Below, one piece after another: positions 2,403 to 43,963 of a stretch of 64,000 bases of DNA; within the stretch, counting starts at the first letter, position 1, and the number at the start of each line of letters is the position of its first letter. The DNA lies in contig MFYJ01000007.1 of the NCBI GenBank assembly GCA_001787755.1, positions 146,585 to 210,584 of the forward strand. The letters are read 5' to 3'. The translations under genes and the position numbers were made by a program. Origin of the DNA: Candidatus Peribacteria bacterium RIFOXYB1_FULL_54_35. Its GTDB lineage: Bacteria > Patescibacteriota > Gracilibacteria > Peribacterales > Peribacteraceae. The notes under the pieces are model-generated. The model saw only the letters and a program-made list of their open reading frames with translations, was not told the origin of the DNA and did not search any database.

Positions 2403-3775
2403 AACCAGATATTACAATAGACGAGGCAACCGATCCGCGTACGTTGGCTCAGCCTCCTTTCGTCGAGTGTCCGCGATGTCATAAACAGACGAATGGTGTA
2501 TGGCACATTGGAGTGCGTTGTTATTTGCGTCTCTGTTCCGAATGTCCAATGCCGGACCCCAATCGTGGAGAGAAACCGGAAATGATCTCTTTGCCGAAGA
2601 TAGAAAAGAAAGTGATTTACTTGGATCAGCATGTCATCAGCAGCATGGCTAAGGCACTCAGGCCGGAGCTGCAGCGAACGCAGAAGATGGAGACTCGTAT
2701 CCAAGAAGACTGGATCAAACTCTTCCGGAAGTTGGATCGGCTGCGCCGCTTGCAAATGATTGTCTGCCCGTTCTCGATGCACCATCGGAGAGAGTCCTTC
2801 ATGGATGATCGGATCTATAAGTATTTGAAGACGTTGTACAAACGGCTGGCGAACGGCGTGGAGTTCTTTGAACCATTGAAAGTCCTATCCATCCAAGTGA
2901 TGCAGTACGCACGACACCATTTGGATCACTCGCAGCCTGCGTTCATCGACAATCCGCAAACCGTTGTTCTCGGCACCATCAACTCGTGGGAACGATACTC
3001 ACTGAAGGCTGGTATGCAGGACTACGGATGGAAACCCGAAGGAGCGGAATTAATGAGAAAACAAAACGCCGAATCCCATCGGATATTTCAAGAAATATAC
3101 GAACGCTGGAAGCAGGAAGGCATGAGCATCGAGGACCGAATCGAGGAAGAATCCCAAGGCTTCTCCAAATTCCTACTACAAAAAGCGCGGGAGCAATTCG
3201 GTATGCCCATCGAGCCACAGCTTGCTCAGCAGATCGAGGTAGAAATGGTGGACGACCAACATGCCTACATCAAATTGGTCGATGATGTGTACCAGCTATT
3301 CTCCGGTGGTTCGGCGATCATCAATCCCTCCCTCCTCCGGCACATGATTGATTTCTTGGCGGGTGACGATTTGAGAAAACAGGTGCCGACAATTCGGATC
3401 GAGCCGCTTCTCTGGGCGACATTGGCGAGACAGGCTGCTGCCGCAAAGGGGCGCAAAGAAGAAATTGATCATGGGGACTTCAATGATATTGGTGCGATTG
3501 CCAATATTCTACCCTATTGCGATGTAATGACAGTTGACAGAGCGTGGCATGGAAGATTGCGAGAGAATCCAGCCGCACAGGAAATGAAGAATTACAGGGC
3601 AAAGATTGTGTCTAGGAGCAATCTGCAGGAGATCATGGAGTATCTTGATCAAATCGAACGAGAGACTCCGAATCGGGTTCTGGAAGCTGTTCAGGAAGTA
3701 TGTGGAAGTCTTGAGGAGGAAGACCCCTTTGGTGAAGAAGAGATGAAACTGTATTCCAAATCGGTAAAGGACTGA
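2399..3775 (+). CDS. hypothetical protein with N-terminal four-Cys zinc ribbon and a possible split PIN-like nuclease signature
   Basis: In-frame ATG at 2399 forms an ATGA overlap with the MTase stop (2400-2402). CPRC...CSEC near the N-terminus, then KKVIYLDQHVIS, and DIGAIANILPYCDVMTVDRAW near the C-terminus. No family recognised. Confidence 0.65.
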   Translation: MKPDITIDEATDPRTLAQPPFVECPRCHKQTNGVWHIGVRCYLRLCSECPMPDPNRGEKPEMISLPKIEKKVIYLDQHVISSMAKALRPELQRTQKMETRIQEDWIKLFRKLDRLRRLQMIVCPFSMHHRRESFMDDRIYKYLKTLYKRLANGVEFFEPLKVLSIQVMQYARHHLDHSQPAFIDNPQTVVLGTINSWERYSLKAGMQDYGWKPEGAELMRKQNAESHRIFQEIYERWKQEGMSIEDRIEEESQGFSKFLLQKAREQFGMPIEPQLAQQIEVEMVDDQHAYIKLVDDVYQLFSGGSAIINPSLLRHMIDFLAGDDLRKQVPTIRIEPLLWATLARQAAAAKGRKEEIDHGDFNDIGAIANILPYCDVMTVDRAWHGRLRENPAAQEMKNYRAKIVSRSNLQEIMEYLDQIERETPNRVLEAVQEVCGSLEEEDPFGEEEMKLYSKSVKD

Positions 3776-4037: not shown

Positions 4038-4074
4038 GTACGCCAGCGGCGGGCTTTTCTGATACCCTGCGACC

Positions 4075-5550
4075 ATGAAAGTCATCGTGTACTGCCGCAA
4101 ATCCACAGAACAGGATGATCGCCAGATTCTCTCGATTGATGCGCAGCTTCGTGAGCTGCGCGAATACGCCGCAAAAGAACAGTTGGAAATCGTCGCCTCG
4201 CTCCGCGAGGCCAAAACCGCAAAAGAGCCCGGGCGAACCGAGTTCGCCAGAATGTTGGAAATTGTAGAGAAAGGAGGAGCAGACGGAATTCTCGCATGGC
4301 ATCCCGACAGACTCGCCAGGAACTCTGTAGACGGGGGGAGGATTATTCATCTTCTGGACACCGGCAAGCTCAAAGCGCTGAAGTTTCCCACTTTCTGGTT
4401 TGAGCCGACTCCGCAAGGGAAATTTATGCTCAACATTGCTTTCGGCCAGTCCAAGTACTACGTGGACAACCTTGCCGAGAATGTGAAACGCGGCATGCGC
4501 GAGAAAGTGCGCCGAGGCGAGTGGACGTGGCCTGCACCGCTTGGATACGTCAACAACCGAGAGGAGCGGAACATTGAGCCGGACCCCGAGAAATCGCCAA
4601 TCGTGCGCAAGGCGTTCCAAATGTACGCCACGGGAGCTCATACGCTTCTCTCGCTCCGAAACGAACTCACACTCCTCGGGCTTCGCACGCGCAAAGGCAA
4701 GGTGCTGCCGGTGTCCAATGTCCAGAAGATGCTCAAGCATCATGCGTACTACGGAGTCATCAGCATGAACGGGGAGCTGTTCCCCGGCGCGTTCGAGCCA
4801 ATTGTGAGCAGGAGACTGTTCGACGCAGCGCAGGAAGTCATGCACTTTAAGAGCAAAACCAAGCGCAGGAGAAAGCATGAGCTTCCCTTCACGGGCTTCC
4901 TGCACTGCTCAGCCTGCACCTGCGCGATAACTGCTGAAATCCAGAAAGGTCACCACTATTACCGCTGCACGCACAAGCGCGGTCCCTGCGACCAGCGCAA
5001 ATACCTGCGCGAGGAGGGATTGCTCAAAGAGGTGCGCACCATCGTCGAACGCGTCTCACTGCCCGATGACTGGGTGGACAACATGCTTGCCGAACTCGAC
5101 AAGGAGGAAGCCGAGGGAAAGTCAGATCATCGGACCTCTGTTCAGCGCCTCGAAGATGAGCGGAAGGGCATCGATCAGAAGCTCGATACCCTTCTTGATC
5201 TGCGACTGGAGGGGGCGCTCGATACCGGAGAATACCTTGTGCGAAAGAACGCGCTGGTGTCCTGTAAAGTCGAGATTGGTCAACAGATCAAGGATGCTGA
5301 ACAGAGTTGCTCACATTGGCTCGAACCCATGCGAGAGATGATTGTACGCAGTCGTGAAGCCAAGAAACTGCTCACGACGGAAAACTACTCGGAATTTCCA
5401 ACATTCCTTAAACGCATCGGAACGAACTTTGTTTTGAAAGGGAACGCGGTGCAGTGGGAAGCCGCGATCGGCTGGCGCGTGCTCGCGCATTCGCGCGGAT
5501 TTCGTGATTGGTGGGTCAGGTGGGATTTGAACCCACGGCCAATTGCTTAA
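4075..5550 (+). CDS. large serine recombinase (resolvase/invertase N-domain, recombinase domain, zinc ribbon, coiled coil)
   Basis: N-terminus MKVIVYCRKSTEQDDRQ with catalytic Ser context and HPDRLARN. Cys cluster CSACTCAITAEIQKGHHYYRCTHKRGPC. The ORF runs through the right 79-bp repeat and 42 nt into tRNA-Lys, stopping at a TAA antisense to the anticodon loop. Confidence 0.9.
   Translation: MKVIVYCRKSTEQDDRQILSIDAQLRELREYAAKEQLEIVASLREAKTAKEPGRTEFARMLEIVEKGGADGILAWHPDRLARNSVDGGRIIHLLDTGKLKALKFPTFWFEPTPQGKFMLNIAFGQSKYYVDNLAENVKRGMREKVRRGEWTWPAPLGYVNNREERNIEPDPEKSPIVRKAFQMYATGAHTLLSLRNELTLLGLRTRKGKVLPVSNVQKMLKHHAYYGVISMNGELFPGAFEPIVSRRLFDAAQEVMHFKSKTKRRRKHELPFTGFLHCSACTCAITAEIQKGHHYYRCTHKRGPCDQRKYLREEGLLKEVRTIVERVSLPDDWVDNMLAELDKEEAEGKSDHRTSVQRLEDERKGIDQKLDTLLDLRLEGALDTGEYLVRKNALVSCKVEIGQQIKDAEQSCSHWLEPMREMIVRSREAKKLLTTENYSEFPTFLKRIGTNFVLKGNAVQWEAAIGWRVLAHSRGFRDWWVRWDLNPRPIA
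5436..5514. repeat. right copy of the 79-bp perfect inverted repeat
   Basis: Exact reverse complement of 3959-4037. Its last 6 nt (TGGTGG) encode the CC-A-CCA 3' end of tRNA-Lys. Confidence 0.95.
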
Positions 5551-5585
5551 GAGGCAACTGCTCTACCGGGCTGAGCTACTGACCC
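5509..5585 (-). tRNA. tRNA-Lys (anticodon CUU), CCA encoded
   Basis: Minus-strand read GGGTCAG TA GCTC AGCCCGGTA GAGC A GTTGC CTCTTAA GCAAT TGGCC GTGGG TTCAAAT CCCAC CTGACCC A CCA (77 nt). Confidence 0.92.
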
Positions 5586-6412: not shown

Positions 6413-6925
6413 GCAACACTATGAGTGAGAGGACGGTAGGAAAAAAGCTGCTATAGCCTCGCAATTTTCCCTCTGCAGTTTTACACTGCCTTCCTTCTTT
6501 CCCCTCTTTGCGATGGTTTCCGATTCTGAACAGCGAGAAGCTTCTTCCCTGGTATCGGGTGCCCCCGCAAATCTGCTGCAGGGCGTTGCCGCGGAGGTAG
6601 TAGGTCTGGGTTTTGCGCTCCAGAAGAATGAGCGTGCGACAGATGATTCCCAGATGCGGTTTACGCGGTCAGAGGGGGGCCGGACAATCGTCGTTGGGCT
6701 CGAAAGGGGCTCGAAGAGCAACACCGTCTGGGTGTCTGTATCCACATTCGGTGTGGGGAGGGTGGCGGCCAGCGATATGAATCCGACAGAGGTGCAGGCT
6801 GATCGTGTTCCCTCGGTACTCTCCGCGCACCTCACGACGCACGGACTGGCGAATGCAGTCCAGGTTCAGGCGGAGTCCACCCTCGGAGGTTCTGTAGCGT
6901 AGCCTGTTTCTGCTACCATCCGGTC

Positions 6926-26704: not shown

Positions 26705-27361
26705 GTGTATACTGCTTTCTCTATGTTTCAAACCCTCCTGGATTTCGTGTTTCCACGCAGATCCCTCACCGGGGAGGAGGGGGAGTTTGTGACGGAGGAG
26801 GAATTTCAGAAACTGCATTCGTTCCCGGTGGTCGAGGAGAAGCACGTACTCCTCGGCAGGGGGATAGAGTGGCTGGATGCCATCCGTGCCGGGAGCAGCT
26901 ACCACTACTGCCCGCTCCTCAAAAAAGCCATCCATACTTTTAAGTACCAGCGCATTCCGGGTCTTGCCGAGCACCTCGCATCCCTCATTACAGCAGCTCC
27001 GCTCCCGCAGGTTCCGGAAGGGGCGGTGCTCTGCCCGGTGCCGCTCCACTGGAGCCGGCTCAATGAGCGGGGGTTCAACCAGTCAGAGCTCCTCGCGCGG
27101 GAACTCTCTGGCCATATGGGAATTCCCATGCGCTGTCTTCTCTCACGCACCCGCGCAACGGGATTCCAGTCCCACAGGAGCCGCGCGGAACGCCTCGTTG
27201 CCATGCAGGATGCTTTCGTCTGCAGGCAGCGGAGCGCGCCTCCGTTCGTCGTGCTCATCGACGATCTCGCAACCACCGGTGCCACGCTGGATGCCTGTGC
27301 CCGGGCGCTCAAGGAGAGGGGAGTGACGCACGTGGAGGCGTGGGTGGTGGCGCATGGCTAG
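26705..27361 (+). CDS. comF: ComF family protein (phosphoribosyltransferase domain)
   Basis: 218 aa. PRTase motif VVLIDDLATTGATL; the N-terminal region is typical of ComF. Confidence 0.85.
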   Translation: MYTAFSMFQTLLDFVFPRRSLTGEEGEFVTEEEFQKLHSFPVVEEKHVLLGRGIEWLDAIRAGSSYHYCPLLKKAIHTFKYQRIPGLAEHLASLITAAPLPQVPEGAVLCPVPLHWSRLNERGFNQSELLARELSGHMGIPMRCLLSRTRATGFQSHRSRAERLVAMQDAFVCRQRSAPPFVVLIDDLATTGATLDACARALKERGVTHVEAWVVAHG

Positions 27362-27751: not shown

Positions 27752-28870
27752 GTGATTATGACATTCCTCCTCTCAGCACTGGCGTTCGTTCTCCTGCTGA
27801 GTGTGCTTATTCTCATCCACGAGTGGGGGCATTTCGCTGCGGCTCGCAGGGCCGGAGTAGTGGTGGAGGAATTCGGTTTCGGCCTGCCTCCCAAGGTGAA
27901 AGTGCTCTTTCGGAAGAGAGGAACGGAGTTCACGTTCAACTGGATTCCCTTCGGTGGGTTTGTGCGTCTGAGGGGAGAGAATGCGCTCACGGAGAAGGAA
28001 CGGGTTTCGAAAGGGAGCTTTGGCGCGGCGACGATCTGGCAGCGGGTGATGATCCTCTCTGCCGGTGTGTTCATGAATTTTATCCTCGCTCTTGTGCTGC
28101 TCATGTTCGGTTTCTCCGTGGGGAAGTGGGTGCCGACATACTCCAGTCTGGAGGAGATGCAGGCTGCAGCAGAGAAAGGCGTCATTCACGTGGAACTCGG
28201 AGTCATCATTGAAGATGTAGTCAGCGGGGGCACTGCAGCGAAGACCGGTGTGCCGGAGAAGAGCGTGCTCCTCCGTGTCGATGGCATCCCCATCATCGAT
28301 CCCGCGGATGTCATGCACATCCAGGCGGGGAAGAAGCGCGTGACGTACGACCTGCTCATAGGAGAGGATTTCTCCGAGGAAGTGAGCATGACTGTTCCTC
28401 TGGAAGACGGGAAATCAGGGATTCTTGTGGCGCTCTTCCCGCGCACGCTCTCTTCGCCCGATCGCACGCTCTGGACTGCGTTCACTCTCGCGCTGCGTGA
28501 GGTGTGGGTGATGACGAAGCAGACGGTGCTTGGCATCTCTCACCTCTTCCACTCGCTCGCTGTGAGCGGCCGCGTGCCCGAGGGCATCACGGGCCTGGTC
28601 GGCATTGCCCAGCTCACGTACGCGTCCGTGCAGCAGGGATTCATGGTGTACCTCCGCCTGGTTGCTCTGCTGAGCCTGAGCCTCGCTGTGCTGAATATTC
28701 TTCCGTTCCCGGCACTGGACGGAGGGCGGCTGCTCTTCGTTTTTGCAGAACTCATCCGGCGCCGCCCAGTGAACCGCCGCTTTGAACTCACGGTGAATGC
28801 CATTGGGTTCTTCTTTCTTCTTTCTGTGATTTTCATCATCACCTTCTATGACATTGTCCGTCTCTTCTAG
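27752..28870 (+). CDS. rseP: RIP site-2 metalloprotease RseP (M50)
   Basis: HEWGH zinc motif, PDZ-like middle region, NILPFPALDGG C-terminal motif. Confidence 0.9.
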   Translation: MIMTFLLSALAFVLLLSVLILIHEWGHFAAARRAGVVVEEFGFGLPPKVKVLFRKRGTEFTFNWIPFGGFVRLRGENALTEKERVSKGSFGAATIWQRVMILSAGVFMNFILALVLLMFGFSVGKWVPTYSSLEEMQAAAEKGVIHVELGVIIEDVVSGGTAAKTGVPEKSVLLRVDGIPIIDPADVMHIQAGKKRVTYDLLIGEDFSEEVSMTVPLEDGKSGILVALFPRTLSSPDRTLWTAFTLALREVWVMTKQTVLGISHLFHSLAVSGRVPEGITGLVGIAQLTYASVQQGFMVYLRLVALLSLSLAVLNILPFPALDGGRLLFVFAELIRRRPVNRRFELTVNAIGFFFLLSVIFIITFYDIVRLF

Positions 28871-30311
28871 CGCCGTTGCGGTGCCACCGGCCCCCGTGAA
28901 GACCGACCAGGATCTCTGGATTCAGGTGCTGAGTGCACTGGAGAAGCAGATCCAGCGCAGCCAGTTCATCACCTGGTTCCGCGGCACGGCGGTTCTCGGC
29001 CGCGAAGAGGGGACGCTCATCGTCGGCCTGCCTCTCCCCATGTCGCTCAACTGGCACATGGAGCACTACCGGCTGCAGACACTCAAGGAGGTGCAGAATA
29101 TCGATTCTTCCATTGAGCAGGTTGTCTACAAGGTCGATGTGGGTCTCAAAGATAATCCGGAGCGTGCGGTGAATCTCCTCACGCTTTTCCCGGAGCAGAA
29201 GAAGCGCAAGCTCCCCGGCAGGCAGGAGGTGAAGATGGCGGAGGGACTCACGAGCAAGATTTTAAGCCCCCGCTACATGATCGAAAACTTTGTCGTCGGT
29301 GCGAGCAACCGCCTCGCCCATGCTGCGTGCCAGGCGGTGGCGGCACAGCCGGGCGGCAAATACAACCCGCTCTTCCTCTACGGAGGGGTGGGGCTGGGGA
29401 AAACACACCTGCTGCAGGCGACGGGGAATGAGATCCTCCGGAAGATGCCGAGGGCCACTGTGGTCTACGCCACGAGTGAGGACTTCACCAACGAAGTGGT
29501 GGATGCCATCCGCCTCCAGAAGATGGAGCGCCTGCGCAACCGCTACAGAAAGGTGGATGTCCTCATTGTCGACGACGTGCAGTTCCTCGCGAACAAGGAG
29601 CGCACGCAGGAGGAGTTTTTTCACACCTTCAATGCGCTCTACGAGGACCAGAAGCAGGTCATCATCTCCGCCGACCGTCCTCCGCAGGAGCTGCAGCTTG
29701 CAGAGAGGCTCATCTCCCGCTTCGCGCGGGGCATGATCGCCGACATCTCCATGCCCGACTACGAGACACGGTTGGCCATTCTGGTGGAGAAAGCACAGAA
29801 CTACGAGATCTTCATGGATGCGAAGGTACTGGAGTTCATCGCCGGGAACATGGAGACGAACATCCGCGAACTCGAAGGCATCCTCATGCAGGCGGTGGCG
29901 CAGTACGAGCTGGAGCAGCGCATGCCCACGGTCAAGAGCATCAGCGAGATCATGAGCAAGCTCAGCTACGATCCGCACGTTGAAGAGGAGGAGGTGGGGT
30001 TCGAGCTGCCGCAGAAGCGTGCAGCGACATTCCAGGACGTCATGGAAGCGACGAGCCGCTACTTCTCCGTTTCAGTGCTAGACATGGTCGGGACTTCCCG
30101 TGTGCGGGAGATTCTCATCCCGCGGCAGATTGCCATGTTCCTCGGCAAGAAGTACCTGCGTATGAGCTTTGTGCGCCTCGGTGAACTCTTCTCGAACCGG
30201 GATCACACCACTGTGATGAATGCGGTGGAGAAGATCGATGACCACATGCAGAACGATCCGCAGCTCCTGCGTGAGGTGCGGGCGATAGAGCGGGAGCTGG
30301 GGTTTGTCTGA
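28848..30311 (+). CDS. dnaA: chromosomal replication initiator DnaA
   Basis: Walker A GGVGLGKTHL, VDDVQFL, and the C-terminal DNA-binding region RDHTTVMNAVEKI. Overlaps rseP by 23 nt. Confidence 0.95.
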   Translation: MTLSVSSSAVAVPPAPVKTDQDLWIQVLSALEKQIQRSQFITWFRGTAVLGREEGTLIVGLPLPMSLNWHMEHYRLQTLKEVQNIDSSIEQVVYKVDVGLKDNPERAVNLLTLFPEQKKRKLPGRQEVKMAEGLTSKILSPRYMIENFVVGASNRLAHAACQAVAAQPGGKYNPLFLYGGVGLGKTHLLQATGNEILRKMPRATVVYATSEDFTNEVVDAIRLQKMERLRNRYRKVDVLIVDDVQFLANKERTQEEFFHTFNALYEDQKQVIISADRPPQELQLAERLISRFARGMIADISMPDYETRLAILVEKAQNYEIFMDAKVLEFIAGNMETNIRELEGILMQAVAQYELEQRMPTVKSISEIMSKLSYDPHVEEEEVGFELPQKRAATFQDVMEATSRYFSVSVLDMVGTSRVREILIPRQIAMFLGKKYLRMSFVRLGELFSNRDHTTVMNAVEKIDDHMQNDPQLLREVRAIERELGFV

Positions 30312-30454
30312 AAGATACTTGACACACTGTCAAATACGCGTACGTTCGCATTATGCGAGCAGGCGTGCGTAAGGACGTGGCTTGGATGCGGTCTTCCTCG
30401 AAGGACTCGAGGTCGGCTTCCCGCTCAAGGATGAGGCGAGCGCTTGCAGCTACA

Positions 30455-30515
30455 GGGGTGGAACGGAGTCCACTGATATGAGCACCTCGGATGCTCTGCT
30501 CCACCCCACTTTTTT
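30455..30515 (+). terminator. intrinsic terminator, probably for dnaA
   Basis: GGGGTGGA(a)CGGAGT pairs with GCTCTG(c)TCCACCCC (about 14 bp with one mismatch), followed by ACTTTTTT. Confidence 0.7.
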
Positions 30516-30576
30516 CATTCGGCTTTTTTCCGTTGCGCAATATCGCGGTATCCTGCATGATGAACACTGCTTTCTC

Positions 30577-30633
30577 ATGCATCTCCTCCGCACAACCACC
30601 ACAACGACCACTACCCCCATGCGGAGGAGCTGA
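30577..30633 (+). CDS. thrS leader peptide MHLLRTTTTTTTTPMRRS
   Basis: ATG 30577, TGA 30631-30633. Eight consecutive Thr codons ACA ACC ACC ACA ACG ACC ACT ACC at 30592-30615. Confidence 0.7.
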   Translation: MHLLRTTTTTTTTPMRRS

Positions 30634-30691
30634 CGCCGTACTATTCTCACGATACCCAGCCCTCCGCACACAAGGAGGGTTTTTTGTTTTT
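30583..30691 (+). promoter_or_regulatory. attenuator: segments 1:2 / 2:3 / 3:4 with terminator
   Basis: Segment 1 is CTCCTCCGCA (30583-30592), segment 2 TGCGGAGGAG (30620-30629), segment 3 CCCTCCGCA (30660-30668), segment 4 GGAGGG (30674-30679), followed by TTTTTTGTTTTT. Confidence 0.7.
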
Positions 30692-30716
30692 CTCTCTCTG
30701 CTACACTCTCTCCACC

Positions 30717-32528
30717 ATGGCACCACGCACAAAATCACAGCCCGATGATCTCCACTGCATGCGCCACAGTCTCGCGCATGTTCTCGCGCAGGCGGTACTC
30801 AAACTCTGGCCCGGTACCAAGATCAGCATCGGTCCGCCTATCGACTCCGGCTGCTACTACGATTTTCTCTTTCAAGAGCCCATTTCCGATGAGGATCTGA
30901 AAATGATCGAGAAGGAGATGCGTTCCATCATCAACAGGGGGCAGACGTTTGCCGTGGAAACGTTCTCGGTGAACGACTCCATCAAGTACTGGAAGAAGCG
31001 GGAGGAGCCGTTCAAGGTGGAGCTTGTGGAGGATCTGAAAGCGCAGGGGGAGAAAGAGGTGACGCACTACCGCAGCCTGGACTGCAAAGGCAATGAGGTG
31101 TTCGAAGATCTCTGCGCAGGGGGACATGTGCAGGATCTCAAAGAGGTTCCGGCGGACTCATTCAAGGTCATGAGTGTTGCCGGCGCGTACTGGCGGGGTG
31201 ACGAGCACCGCGAGCAGCTCACGCGCATCTACGTGGCTGCGTTCCGGACCAGGCAGGAACTCGACGAATATCTGAAAATGCTGGAGGAGGGGAGGAAGCG
31301 CGACCACCGCAAGCTGGGGAAGGAGATGGATCTCTTCGTCTTCAGCGATATGGTCGGGCCCGGTCTCCCGCTCTGGACACCCAAGGGCACGGTGATCGCC
31401 GATGAGGTGGAGCGTCTTGCGCGCGAGACGGAGGAGGCAGGCGGGTACCTGCGGGTGCGCACGCCGCACATTGCCAAGGGAAAACTCTATGAGCAGACGG
31501 GGCACCTTGCGCACTATAGGGAGTCGATGTTCCCTCCCATGCAGTTGGATGGCGAGGACGAGTACTACCTCAAGCCCATGAACTGCCCGCACCACCATCA
31601 GATCTTCGCGAGCCAGCCCCGGAGTTACCGCGATCTTCCCATGCGCCTGGCGGAGTACGGGCACTGCTACCGGTACGAGGACAGCGGGGCGCTCTTCGGG
31701 CTCATGCGCGTGCGGTCACTCAGCATGAACGATGCGCACATCTACTGCACCGAGGAGCAGTTTGAGGAGGAGTTCATCGCCGTTGCCAACATGTATCTCA
31801 AGTACTTCAAAATCTTCGGCATCGAGAAGTACGTCATGCGGCTCTCGCTCCATAATCCTGCGGGATTCGGCAAGAAGTACGTTGATGCGCCGGAGCTGTG
31901 GGTGAAGACGGAGGAGATGGTCCGCAATGCCATGAAGAAGACGGGGTGTGCCTGTACGGAAGTGGATGATGAAGCGGCTTTCTACGGGCCGAAGATCGAT
32001 GTGGAAGTGTGGAGTGCCATTGGCCGCGAATTCACGCTCGCCACCAATCAGGTGGACTTCGACATTCCGGGCAAGGTGGGACTTAAGTACACGGATGCCG
32101 ATGGCAGCGAGAAGGTTCCGCTCTGCATCCACCGGGCGCCGCTTGGCACGCACGAGCGTTTCATCGGTTTTCTCATAGAGCACTTCGCGGGACATTTCCC
32201 ACTGTGGCTTGCGCCGGTGCAGGCGGCTCTGCTCCCGGTTGCCGCTGCCCATGAGGAATGTGCACGTGGCGTGGAGGCGAAGCTCAGGGAGAAGGGGATG
32301 CGTGTGACATTCCTGGATGCGGCCGAATCGTTAGGGAAGCGTATTCGTTTCGGCGAGCAGCAGCGCATTCCGTACCTGCTGGTTCTTGGCGACAAGGAAA
32401 AGGAGTGTGCAGGTGTTGCTGTCCGTAATGTGAAGACGAAGCAGCAGGTGGAAGTGTCTCTTTCAGAATTCATCAGCAAGACCGCTCAGGATATTGCACA
32501 GCGCTCTCTCACTCATTCCATTGGCTGA
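30717..32528 (+). CDS. thrS: threonine--tRNA ligase lacking the N-terminal TGS domain
   Basis: Begins near the editing-domain motif RHSLAHVLAQAV. Class II catalytic motifs and an anticodon-binding domain are present. An alternative TTG start at 30684 is possible. Confidence 0.93.
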   Translation: MAPRTKSQPDDLHCMRHSLAHVLAQAVLKLWPGTKISIGPPIDSGCYYDFLFQEPISDEDLKMIEKEMRSIINRGQTFAVETFSVNDSIKYWKKREEPFKVELVEDLKAQGEKEVTHYRSLDCKGNEVFEDLCAGGHVQDLKEVPADSFKVMSVAGAYWRGDEHREQLTRIYVAAFRTRQELDEYLKMLEEGRKRDHRKLGKEMDLFVFSDMVGPGLPLWTPKGTVIADEVERLARETEEAGGYLRVRTPHIAKGKLYEQTGHLAHYRESMFPPMQLDGEDEYYLKPMNCPHHHQIFASQPRSYRDLPMRLAEYGHCYRYEDSGALFGLMRVRSLSMNDAHIYCTEEQFEEEFIAVANMYLKYFKIFGIEKYVMRLSLHNPAGFGKKYVDAPELWVKTEEMVRNAMKKTGCACTEVDDEAAFYGPKIDVEVWSAIGREFTLATNQVDFDIPGKVGLKYTDADGSEKVPLCIHRAPLGTHERFIGFLIEHFAGHFPLWLAPVQAALLPVAAAHEECARGVEAKLREKGMRVTFLDAAESLGKRIRFGEQQRIPYLLVLGDKEKECAGVAVRNVKTKQQVEVSLSEFISKTAQDIAQRSLTHSIG

Positions 32529-35351: not shown

Positions 35352-35438
35352 GACACCGGTACGTAGTATAGAGTGTGATGATTCTACAATCCTAATTTCT
35401 AACTCTCACCCCAGTAATCTGATATTCTGTTTCCTGCT

Positions 35439-42352: not shown

Positions 42353-42610
42353 GTTTCTGCAGTATAACTGATAGTGGGGATGCAGGTGGAACAAAATCTG
42401 GAGCTTGTGGGGGAGTGTGGCAGTTCAAGCTGCCAGTGTTTCTGCCGGTTGCGGGGGTATACCGACAGCTGAAAGCTGTAAAATCTCTTGCAGAGGGAAG
42501 GGTATCGCGGTAACGTTTCAAGCTTATTTTTCCTTCGTATGTACGTCTTTTACCGCATCTCCTCCAAAGTATTGCATTTTATTAAATTTATGTTATAATA
42601 TTACGATTAC

Positions 42611-43963
42611 ATGAGCCTCTCCGGCACCGACATCTCGGCTGCAACCAAAGCGATTCAGGAGAATCAGCGCATCCTCGTCATCCCGCATGAGAATGTGGAT
42701 CCGGACGGACTCAGCAGTGCACTCGCGTGCTACCAGCTCTTCCGGGCGCTCGGGAAGGATGTCACGGTGATCTGTCCCGATACGCTCCCGGAGTCTCTGG
42801 AGTTCCTCCCGGGGTTTGGGGAGCTTTCACGGGATGTTGCAGAGGGGCAGCAGTTCGTCATCACGGTGAGCCTGCAGGGCGGTGTAGAGGTCGACAAGCT
42901 CCGGTATGCCGTAGAGGATCAGAAGGTCAACATCATTGTGGTGCCAAAGAAAGGGCGCATCCGTTCCCAGGATATTGTGCTTGGAGACGGGGAGAGGCAG
43001 TACGATCTCATCGTGGCGGTAGATACCGCGGATCTGCCGCTCTTTGGGCGTGTGTATACCGAACACGTGGACCTCTTTGCGGATGTTCCTGTGCTGAATG
43101 TCGACCACCACATCAGCAATACACACTACGGGCAGATACACCTCTTGGATCCTACGGCTGCCTCCGCGACGGAGGTGCTCTACAACTGGTTCACGCAGGT
43201 GCCGCAGTGGAAGGAGAGACTCACCCCGGACATTGCGACACTCCTTCTCACGGGACTCATCACCGATACGAGGAGTTTCCAGAACCCCAATACTACGCCG
43301 CGCTCTCTCGAAATTGCCGCAGAGCTTCTGGATTTCGGTGCCCGGCAACAGGAGATCATCAAGCACATCTACAAGACCAAACCGCTGAGTACGCTCAGGG
43401 TGTGGGGGCGTGCGCTCAACCGCATTCAGATAGATCCTGCTTCCGGTATTGTCTGGTCCTCCGTGAACAAGGAAGATCTGGCGGAGTTGGGTGCTACGAG
43501 CAAGGAGACGCACGGCATTCTCGATGAGCTCATTTCCACCATTCCCGATGCGGATGTGCATGTGCTCTTCACTGAACTGGAAGAAGGGGGGTTGAAGGCG
43601 AGCATGCGTTCCTCCGACACTATTGATGCCAGTGCTCTTGCGGCGCGTACCTACGGCGGCGGCGGACATCCGCGTGCTGCCGGGTTCCGTGTTCCGCGGT
43701 TCGAGAACTTTGAACTGCAGGTGCTGGAATGCGTTCAGACGCTCAAGCAGGGGATGCAGCGGCAGCGCGCGGAGAAGGAGCAGAGCAATCACCAACAGCA
43801 GATTCCTGTACAGCCAGCGGTGCAGAACACAGTTTCGCAGGAGGTGCCGCTCCAGGCAGTATCTTCTTCAACACCGGGGGTGGATGTTGTAGAGCGTGTC
43901 GGAGACGAGGGGAACATGGCTGCTTCCGGCGGCACGGATGTGGTCAGTGGGCTGATGGGATAG
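42611..43963 (+). CDS. DHH/DHHA1 phosphoesterase (NrnA-like) with C-terminal extension
   Basis: The NVDHHISN (DHH) and GGGGHPRAAG (DHHA1) motifs. Confidence 0.85.
   Translation: MSLSGTDISAATKAIQENQRILVIPHENVDPDGLSSALACYQLFRALGKDVTVICPDTLPESLEFLPGFGELSRDVAEGQQFVITVSLQGGVEVDKLRYAVEDQKVNIIVVPKKGRIRSQDIVLGDGERQYDLIVAVDTADLPLFGRVYTEHVDLFADVPVLNVDHHISNTHYGQIHLLDPTAASATEVLYNWFTQVPQWKERLTPDIATLLLTGLITDTRSFQNPNTTPRSLEIAAELLDFGARQQEIIKHIYKTKPLSTLRVWGRALNRIQIDPASGIVWSSVNKEDLAELGATSKETHGILDELISTIPDADVHVLFTELEEGGLKASMRSSDTIDASALAARTYGGGGHPRAAGFRVPRFENFELQVLECVQTLKQGMQRQRAEKEQSNHQQQIPVQPAVQNTVSQEVPLQAVSSSTPGVDVVERVGDEGNMAASGGTDVVSGLMG

Follow-up and report, generated by a model that had tools for sequence, protein, structure and literature searches.

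Leader-peptide attenuators are found in front of aminoacyl-tRNA synthetase (aaRS) genes, as at pheST in gamma-proteobacteria. Such elements have been described for trpS and leuS in Streptomyces (PMC1262725) and for hisS paralogues in Bacillus (PMC2965389). In S. lividans TK24, leaderless leuL2, trpL2, alaL and thrL were reported and a thrL-thrS pair was proposed; this thrL has two Thr codons, no U-tract or clear terminator, and comes from one genome (PMC8079986). We were interested in a comparable arrangement in Candidatus Peribacteria bacterium RIFOXYB1_FULL_54_35, where a short open reading frame (ORF) made up largely of threonine codons, here called thrL, precedes thrS, the gene for threonyl-tRNA synthetase (ThrRS). 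It lies in a 64-kb stretch of contig MFYJ01000007.1, which is called the window below and to which all positions refer unless another locus is named. The host belongs to the Candidate Phyla Radiation (CPR, or Patescibacteria), whose members are uncultivated, have tiny genomes with few recognisable regulators, and do not make most amino acids. To our knowledge, almost nothing has been learned about gene regulation in these bacteria. We think it very likely that the thrL region is a classical ribosome-mediated transcription attenuator, which gauges the supply of charged tRNA-Thr and sets read-through into thrS accordingly. The downstream gene ppa is probably under the same read-through control.

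The leader ORF reads ATG (30577), CAT CTC CTC CGC, then eight Thr codons, then CCC ATG CGG AGG AGC and a TGA stop at 30631-30633, and it ends 84 nt before thrS. A short ORF with a cluster of cognate codons is thus found directly ahead of the gene it would regulate. It is the sole short ORF in the window with a run of more than five identical amino acids, and domain annotation found no aaRS gene in the window besides thrS. Genetic code 11 is in use and the leader TGA is a true stop, because thrS has no in-frame TGA and itself ends in TGA. A possible second leader, MLQRGSSSSSR at 42834-42869, was rejected, as it falls within a 450-aa DHH-family ORF.

Downstream of the start codon, the RNA contains four segments which can pair in two mutually exclusive ways. 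Segment 1 (CTCCTCCGCA, 30583-30592), which precedes the Thr run, is a perfect 10-bp complement of TGCGGAGGAG (30620-30629) in segment 2. Segment 2 can pair instead with segment 3: TGCGGAGG (30620-30627) pairs without a mismatch with CCTCCGCA (30661-30668), and past a 1-nt bulge the helix continues with GCTG (30629-30632) and CAGC (30657-30660), for 12 bp in total. Segment 3 overlaps the 5' arm of an intrinsic terminator, whose 3' arm is segment 4. This hairpin, at 30658-30681, lies between the ORF and the gene, and it is the only terminator-like site that a terminator scan found within 29800-31200. When either partner was shuffled, both the 1:2 and the 2:3 complementarity of the window sequence stood out at p<0.002.

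The minimum free energy (MFE) structure of 30560-30700 predicted by RNAfold combines the 1:2 helix with the terminator (-35.3 kcal/mol, z -3.5), so that segment 2 is sequestered by an anti-antiterminator; this last property is variable among relatives. The 1:2 helix is also a probable pause hairpin. Folded alone, the antiterminator hairpin 30620-30668 reaches -21.7 kcal/mol (z -5.7), which none of 200 shuffled sequences equalled, and the terminator reaches -14.7 kcal/mol (z -3.0). Antiterminator and terminator thus exclude each other, and the former is the more stable of the two. The resulting order of stability, 1:2 ≈ 2:3 > 3:4, is a requirement of an attenuator.

The effect of a translating ribosome was approximated by folding the RNA with everything from the 5' end through the A-site codon plus 12 nt held single-stranded. 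With the A-site on codons 2-11, which include Thr codons 1-6, the antiterminator forms and 0% of the terminator pairs survive. For every A-site position from the seventh Thr codon (codon 12) through the stop, 100% of them are kept, as is also the case with no ribosome, when the 1:2 helix forms in addition. In silico, this is a stall geometry which frees segment 2, together with masking of segment 2 at the stop codon. The same switch was seen in L004, L007, L016, L026, L036, L154 and L136, which, like the other L numbers used here, denote thrS loci of relatives.

An earlier note on this DNA had proposed that thrS is under ribosome-mediated attenuation through a Thr leader. Its 18-codon ORF with eight consecutive Thr codons matches the sequence exactly in every coordinate, and folding with and without the mask reproduces the mutually exclusive 1:2/3:4 and 2:3 structures it predicted, including termination when a ribosome on the stop codon masks segment 2. 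Its idea that stalling on the Thr codons frees segment 2 holds for Thr codons 1-6 but not for 7-8, where the ribosome already masks that segment. Altogether, the Thr-specific mini-ORFs of relatives described below, the retained alternative pairings and the masked-folding switch agree with the mechanism that the note put forward.

In the mechanism that we propose, a transcript from a putative promoter, P1, would begin at or a few nt from the leader AUG, and its 18 codons would be translated in leaderless fashion. In the absence of a ribosome, or once the ribosome has left after the UGA, segment 1 would pair with segment 2, segment 3 would be free for the terminator, and transcription would end in the U-run near 30686-30691. 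A ribosome resting on the stop codon would mask segment 2 and likewise lead to termination. When threonyl-tRNA-Thr is scarce, the ribosome would stall on any of Thr codons 1-6 in the run of eight, covering segment 1 and leaving segment 2 free. The 12-bp helix of segments 2 and 3 (-21.7 kcal/mol) could then form while segment 4 has yet to be transcribed; this would block the less stable terminator (-14.7 kcal/mol), and RNA polymerase would proceed into thrS. A second putative promoter, P2, would give a basal level of thrS, to which the attenuator most likely adds the inducible part.

A total of 154 thrS upstream regions were compared, with close relatives obtained via ThrS homologues. As the earlier note had expected, the Thr-codon run is present at other loci, 13 of them: 11 other distinct Peribacteria loci and two loci of other CPR lineages have Thr-run mini-ORFs ahead of thrS. 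The upstream regions were scanned for ATG-initiated ORFs of up to 31 codons in which at least 6 of 8 residues are identical. On the forward (thrS) strand the repeated residue was Thr in 13 of 13 hits, and the reverse-strand control gave a single hit, of Leu. As read from these ORFs, the run signal is specific for Thr, the cognate residue of the downstream gene. A blastn comparison of the whole dnaA-thrS spacer with the first 160 loci returned nothing beyond the Thr-codon run. In the lineage of L155, a code-25 relative, UGA is read as glycine, and 7 of the 9 in-frame TGA codons of its thrS align with Gly.

One locus, L161 (JGI 3300009031 contig Ga0103682_10006293), belongs to the same population as the window, with 99.97% identity over 3465 nt (window 28759-32223), the whole leader included. 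It departs from the window inside thrS at about 32223, which could reflect strain recombination or a chimeric assembly.

The alternative pairings are retained across relatives although the sequences that make them differ. In 11 of 13 sequences, segment 2 matches the terminator's 5' arm better than shuffled sequences do (p<=0.034), and the 1:2 complementarity between the flanks of the Thr run likewise beats shuffles in 7 of 13 (p<0.05). The helices are built from TGCGGAGG/CCTCCGCA in the clade of the window, from GGAAGG/CCTTCC in most others, from GAGGGTGGCC/GGCCGCCCTC in L026 and from GGGGTGTTTT/AAACGCCCC in L136.

The window, L162 and L164 align in register (three-way alignment A2). In this alignment all Thr codons share an unchanging AC and differ in their third bases. 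At matching positions in segments 1, 2, 3 and 4, L164 has C>T, G>A, C>T and G>A together, as would be predicted from alternate 1:2/3:4 and 2:3 pairing. Between 83 and 87% of the cells in the alignment are paired, and this falls to 33-57% once the 3' partners are displaced by 1-3 columns. As to the covarying stems which the earlier note wished to see, the helices kept with different sequences and the coordinated change in L164 are suggestive, but the formal covariation statistics are weak. The features of the locus and of its relatives are collected in the table.

Features of the thrS attenuator region in the window, and Thr-run leader peptides ahead of thrS in relatives
Feature	Position	Strand	Description
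thrS	30717..32528	+	threonyl-tRNA synthetase, 603 aa; Pfam PF07973, PF00587, PF03129
Leader ORF thrL	30577..30633	+	18 codons, peptide MHLLRTTTTTTTTPMRRS followed by stop; no Shine-Dalgarno sequence; from sequence and homologous mini-ORFs
Regulatory codons	30592..30615	+	eight Thr in a row (ACA ACC ACC ACA ACG ACC ACT ACC)
P1 (putative promoter)	30561..30568	+	-10-like box (TG + AACACT) of leader transcript, 8 nt before leader ATG
P2 (putative promoter)	30699..30707	+	extended -10-like box TGCTACACT, 9 nt before thrS ATG, downstream of terminator
Segment 1	30583..30592	+	CTCCTCCGCA, 5' arm of 1:2 anti-antiterminator; MFE fold; duplex -21.7 kcal/mol, p<0.002 vs shuffles
Segment 2	30620..30632	+	TGCGGAGGAGCTG, partner of segment 1 or segment 3; overlaps leader stop codon
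Segment 3	30657..30668	+	CAGCCCTCCGCA, 3' arm of antiterminator, overlapping 5' arm of terminator
Intrinsic terminator hairpin	30658..30681	+	AGCCCTCC (30658-30665) / GGAGGGTT (30674-30681); 8 bp, 8-nt loop, GC-rich; kept in L162, L164
Segment 4	30674..30681	+	3' arm of terminator
T-run	30680..30691	+	TTTTTTGTTTTT (U6GU5), expected 3' end of attenuated transcripts
L162/L163 leader peptide	between dnaA and thrS		MHLVRTTTTTTTTPSRRS
L164 leader peptide	between dnaA and thrS		MQYVCTTTTTTTTLLQRS
L165 leader peptide	between dnaA and thrS		MQLLVTTTTTTQTTFYRKGSCKWI
L004 leader peptide	between dnaA and thrS		MQQRPTTTGTTTTTS
L016 leader peptide	between dnaA and thrS		MQHLFVTTTTTTTTSF
L154 leader peptide	between dnaA and thrS		MQSPIVNTTTTTTTF
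L007 leader peptide	between dnaA and thrS		MSQRTTTTTTTTTSR
L060 leader peptide	between dnaA and thrS		MSQRTTTTTTTLTSR
L013 leader peptide	between dnaA and thrS		MTQHTTTTALTTTTSH
L036 leader peptide	between dnaA and thrS		MTQCTITTLSTTLTSR
L026 leader peptide	between dnaA and thrS		MHGSTLTTTTTTTL
L136 leader peptide			MREVTTTTTTTITTR; Paceibacteria-like, ThrRS nearest to Paceibacteria/Nomurabacteria-type genomes
L155 leader peptide	1811-1977 of L155, thrS from 1977		MLRQPTFTTTNTTTQ followed by TAG stop; code-25 Gracilibacteria/Absconditabacteria-type lineage

The putative P1 box lines up in the three-way alignment with TGTATAAT in L162, a perfect TANNNT, and with TATACT in L164, and 10 of the 12 Peribacteria leaders have a TANNNT placed exactly 9 nt upstream of their ATG. 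P1 may alternatively be read as TTGCGC (30533-38) and CATGAT (30556-61), separated by 17 nt. The P2 box is nearly invariant in L162 and L164, and relatives lacking the leader also have boxes of this type immediately ahead of thrS; TGnTAnnnT boxes are found 6-12 nt before thrS in nearly all relatives, leader or not. Judging from these motifs, P2 is probably the own basal promoter of thrS, and the attenuator would add Thr-responsive read-through from P1; this is the chief reservation about the picture drawn in the earlier note.

Similar boxes are found elsewhere in the window. Of 52 likely gene starts, about 9 have TGnTAnnnT or TANNNT at a distance of 3-12 nt upstream, compared with about 0.6 expected (an estimate from motif density); counted over all ORFs of at least 80 aa, the enrichment is noisy (26 vs 17 +/- 3.6). 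Shine-Dalgarno (SD) sequences are used at essentially none of the gene starts in the window, and none precedes the leader ATG or thrS. This pattern suggests that leaderless or very short-leader mRNAs are widespread in Peribacteria. For thrL itself we infer translation from a leaderless or near-leaderless transcript, without an SD, because the transcript would start at or a few nt from the leader AUG. The suggestion that GGAGG in the terminator serves as an SD for a TTG start at 30684 was not borne out: ThrS relatives align from the ATG at 30717, SD use is essentially nil, and 30684-30716 is a conserved CT-rich, promoter-like stretch in the three-way alignment, not coding sequence.

Examples of boxes before gene starts are those at 4060-4068, 6911-6919, 26706-26713, 30699-30707, 35420-35428 and 42591-42599, and the sequence upstream of them is CT-rich.

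A number of observations weigh against the attenuator. Formal covariation is suggestive rather than proven on these alignments: shuffle controls on the three sequences in register were not significant, RNAalifold on 11 MAFFT-aligned divergent leaders found no pairs in the segment 2-3 region, where the stems were out of register, and the 1:2 helix is poorly kept in L162 (p 0.14). The weakness of these statistics comes from the small number of independent sequences that can be brought into register. The U-tract is weak in some relatives, namely L013 and L036 (GGGGGGCUUCUG), L004 and L154. The masked-folding switch is unclean in silico in three loci: in L013 the terminator is very strong, lengthened by a G-run; in L155 pairing between A- and U-tracts confounds the fold; and in L060 an 87-nt insertion separates the stop codon from segment 2. 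The leader is dispensable, because only about 20% of Peribacteria species representatives carry one (7 of about 34 that could be assessed) and the close relatives L166-L169, L001 and L081 do without. On the transcriptional side, a sigma-70 scan found no -35/-10 consensus promoter, and AACACT is a poor match to a -10 box. P2 lies beyond the terminator, which means that thrS need not depend on read-through, and on read-through transcripts thrS would need internal initiation without an SD. We know of no demonstration of transcription-translation coupling in CPR bacteria. What the sequences show directly is the elements, the alternative ways in which they can pair, their conservation and their specificity for Thr; the two promoters, translated thrL, transcripts ending in the U-run and a response to Thr are all inferred here.

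Several of these points can be accommodated by a different account, in which P2 drives thrS and P1, thrL and the terminator form a separate short unit: a gene for a Thr-rich peptide or a small RNA, an insulator against transcription from dnaA or the neighbouring RNA, or a unit which acts via Rho, RNA stability or occlusion of P2. Boxes like P2 before thrS in nearly all relatives, their strong enrichment just before gene starts in the genome, the poor U-tracts and the absence of the leader from many lineages would all fit. However, a peptide or small-RNA gene needs no segment 2 that is doubly complementary and kept so by coordinated changes, and a plain insulator needs no antiterminator stronger than itself. 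Nor would one expect the repeated amino acid to be the very one that the downstream synthetase uses, or such a unit to appear before thrS in three CPR lineages with unrelated sequences. This is the sole serious alternative, and we consider it improbable because it leaves a Thr-specific, switchable antiterminator in three lineages unexplained. Much less can be said for coincidence, that is, for the Thr run being a chance ORF or part of an 83-codon ORF (30382-30633) and the hairpin and T-run being the terminator of the upstream unit. The mini-ORF indeed has no SD and is in frame with an upstream TTG/ATG-initiated ORF, and intergenic terminators are common. But the chance of eight in-frame ACN codons is about 2e-10 per position, the run is kept with varying wobble bases where the in-frame sequence upstream of it is not conserved in relatives, all 13 run-bearing mini-ORFs before thrS encode Thr, and the upstream unit already has a strong terminator of its own at 30456-30516. 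The comparative sequence data effectively refute coincidence, and we give it next to no credence.

A leader that senses tRNA or protein was also considered, in the form of a degenerate T-box or of an operator like that of E. coli, whose thrS is autoregulated through operator hairpins; such an operator would mimic the anticodon arm for ThrRS to bind. Sister CPR lineages do have T-boxes before thrS: one ahead of thrS in the Gracilibacteria-like L040 matches RF00230 (27.8 bits, E 2e-4), and a canonical T-box GGGTGGAACCGCG precedes thrS in the Paceibacteria-like L131 and L141. A T-box-like core, GGGGUGGAAC, is also present in the window at 30456-30465, about 120 nt upstream. Against this, every base of the GGGUGG core is taken up by pairing in a plain hairpin that is itself conserved, and L162 has not kept the T-box A2 helix. 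Rfam returned no Thr_leader (RF00506), T-box (RF00230) or other credible family in 29800-31200 at E<=10, short stretches searched for a T-box gave none even at E<=10, and a gathering-threshold scan of 16 relatives found tRNAs only. No YUNGURN anticodon-loop-like motif of the kind expected of an E. coli-type ThrRS operator occurs in 30520-30720, and an operator would find no SD to occlude. Such a leader is very unlikely here, if not quite as implausible as coincidence, and ribosome-mediated attenuation remains the reading we favour.

The core just mentioned lies in a wider upstream element, 30318-30516, between dnaA and the promoter of the leader. It is conserved, structured and non-coding-looking, and is common to L162 and L164 only (73% mean identity). 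It carries a strong promoter-like CTTGACA-17-TACGTT and the hairpin CCTCGA-AGGAC-TCGAGG. An 18-nt block within it, GGGGGTGGAACGGAGTCC, is 100% conserved and read in three different frames; it forms a hairpin with CTCCACCCC, followed by T6, and resembles a T-box core. As a T-box, 30350-30516 was rejected on the Rfam result and the A2 helix given above. Candidate identities for the element are a small RNA, the terminator of dnaA and a vestigial T-box.

Leader-bearing loci are scattered over several subclades of the ThrRS neighbour-joining tree, which is without support values. T-boxes at the same place in sister lineages argue that thrS in this group is under attenuation responsive to tRNA charge. 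Exchange of the two sensors at a single gene has a precedent, as T-box-to-leader-peptide swaps have been documented for hisS (PMC2965389). The picture that emerges is of a fast-evolving, dispensable regulatory add-on, with exchange of T-box and leader peptide at thrS.

Some individual loci are informative about gain and loss. L010 (about 2900-3000) and L158 (about 1440-1500) have kept a terminator-type hairpin (…CAATAGCGAAGG…) and the proximal TACCCT/TACGCT box without a Thr mini-ORF, and look like what is left of a leader since lost. In L060, the insertion of about 87 nt (2796-2885) has a hairpin of its own (CCCTCCTTCGCCAAGGCTTCGGAGGG) and disrupts the usual geometry; it could represent a small mobile insertion or mark an attenuator in decay. 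The 12-mer CGCCCCGACAAG occurs both in the leader of L136 (1848-1950) and in the 5' arm of the T-box terminator of L131 and L141, two relatives of L136 with 76% identity. This shared sequence hints that in L136 a leader peptide replaced the T-box sensor and partly kept the terminator.

A bolder reading is that in CPR thrS a leaderless Thr leader replaced a T-box at least three times (in Peribacteria, in the Gracilibacteria-like lineage with UGA as Gly and in the Paceibacteria-like lineage) on a partly retained terminator platform, and that in the clade of the window the conserved RNA of roughly 160 nt at 30350-30516, with its T-box-like GGGGUGGAAC core, is a second, tandem sensor, still functional or vestigial. 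We regard this as rather unlikely. If it were true, the sequences would also speak directly for transcription-translation coupling in CPR and for leaderless translation there.

The gene order at the locus is dnaA-thrS-ppa, with dnaA at 28848-30311 and ppa (inorganic pyrophosphatase) starting 3 nt after thrS, and the dnaA-thrS synteny is found in nearly all Peribacteria loci. The ThrRS of the window has the editing, class II core and anticodon-binding domains without an N-terminal TGS domain, and its closest counterparts are from Candidatus Peribacteria/Peregrinibacteria metagenome-assembled genomes, at 70-88% identity. Many Peribacteria ThrRS (765-780 aa) have a fused N-terminal YbaK/aminoacyl-tRNA-editing domain, PF04073, which that of the window does not; this fusion was seen in L002, L012, L014, L015, L017, L020, L021 and L158 (proteins P0013, P0054, P0057, P0069, P0081 and P0088). 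Far from this locus, a large serine recombinase gene (4075-5550, + strand; Resolvase, Recombinase and Zn-ribbon domains) overlaps a tRNA-Lys (5509-5585, - strand), and the first 4 kb of the window have a G+C of 0.49 vs about 0.56. The recombinase/tRNA-Lys region may be a mobile element integrated at the tRNA.

Within the literature searched, no work was found that joins CPR/Patescibacteria with leader peptides or attenuation; coverage was partial, and an earlier account of a thrS leader is possible. The earlier note knew of no described Thr-leader attenuator on thrS. This stands in so far as none was found in CPR, but a thrL ahead of thrS has been proposed in S. lividans (PMC8079986). The locus described here would be the first clear case of a leader-peptide attenuator in CPR bacteria; the mechanism is textbook, and the advance is in its distribution and evolution, with the host lineage and the leaderless arrangement as the main points of note. 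An attenuator on thrS would show that CPR bacteria use the translating ribosome as a gauge of tRNA charging, which would imply that transcription is coupled to translation, and that they translate mini-ORFs which lack an SD and are probably leaderless. With the T-box at the same gene in sister lineages, it would also be a clean natural example of sensor exchange.

Among described systems, E. coli pheST with its pheM leader is similar in that a short ORF rich in cognate codons is followed by mutually exclusive antiterminator and terminator hairpins, aaRS expression rises when charged tRNA is scarce, and further promoters feed the region. The two differ in amino acid and gene (Phe and pheST there, Thr and thrS here) and share no sequence homology, and the Peribacteria element has no SD, is apparently leaderless or nearly so, sits in a reduced-genome CPR host and has a probable second promoter between terminator and gene. 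The leader of the thr operon of E. coli and Salmonella (thrL, RF00506) also has a run of Thr codons in a peptide of roughly 20 codons, four-segment logic and an intrinsic terminator. It controls thrABC biosynthesis, however, and senses Thr and Ile codons, whereas the Peribacteria leader precedes a synthetase, repeats only Thr and has no Rfam match.

The aaRS leaders of actinobacteria, where leader peptides from leaderless transcripts have been reported (PMC8079986), resemble it in standing before aaRS genes, in the leaderless transcripts and in the proposed thrL-thrS pair. Compared with the S. lividans thrL, the CPR element has 6-9 Thr codons and a canonical terminator and is found at 14 loci, in another phylum and without homology. 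The thrS T-box of Firmicutes, and of L040, L131 and L141, acts on the same gene, responds to the charging of tRNA-Thr and has the same output of antiterminator versus terminator, but its sensor is RNA that binds uncharged tRNA, whereas in the Peribacteria leader the sensor would be the translating ribosome. Beside the translational autorepression of E. coli and the T-boxes of Firmicutes, the Peribacteria leader would thus be a third regulatory solution for thrS, one previously hinted at by the weak candidate in S. lividans.

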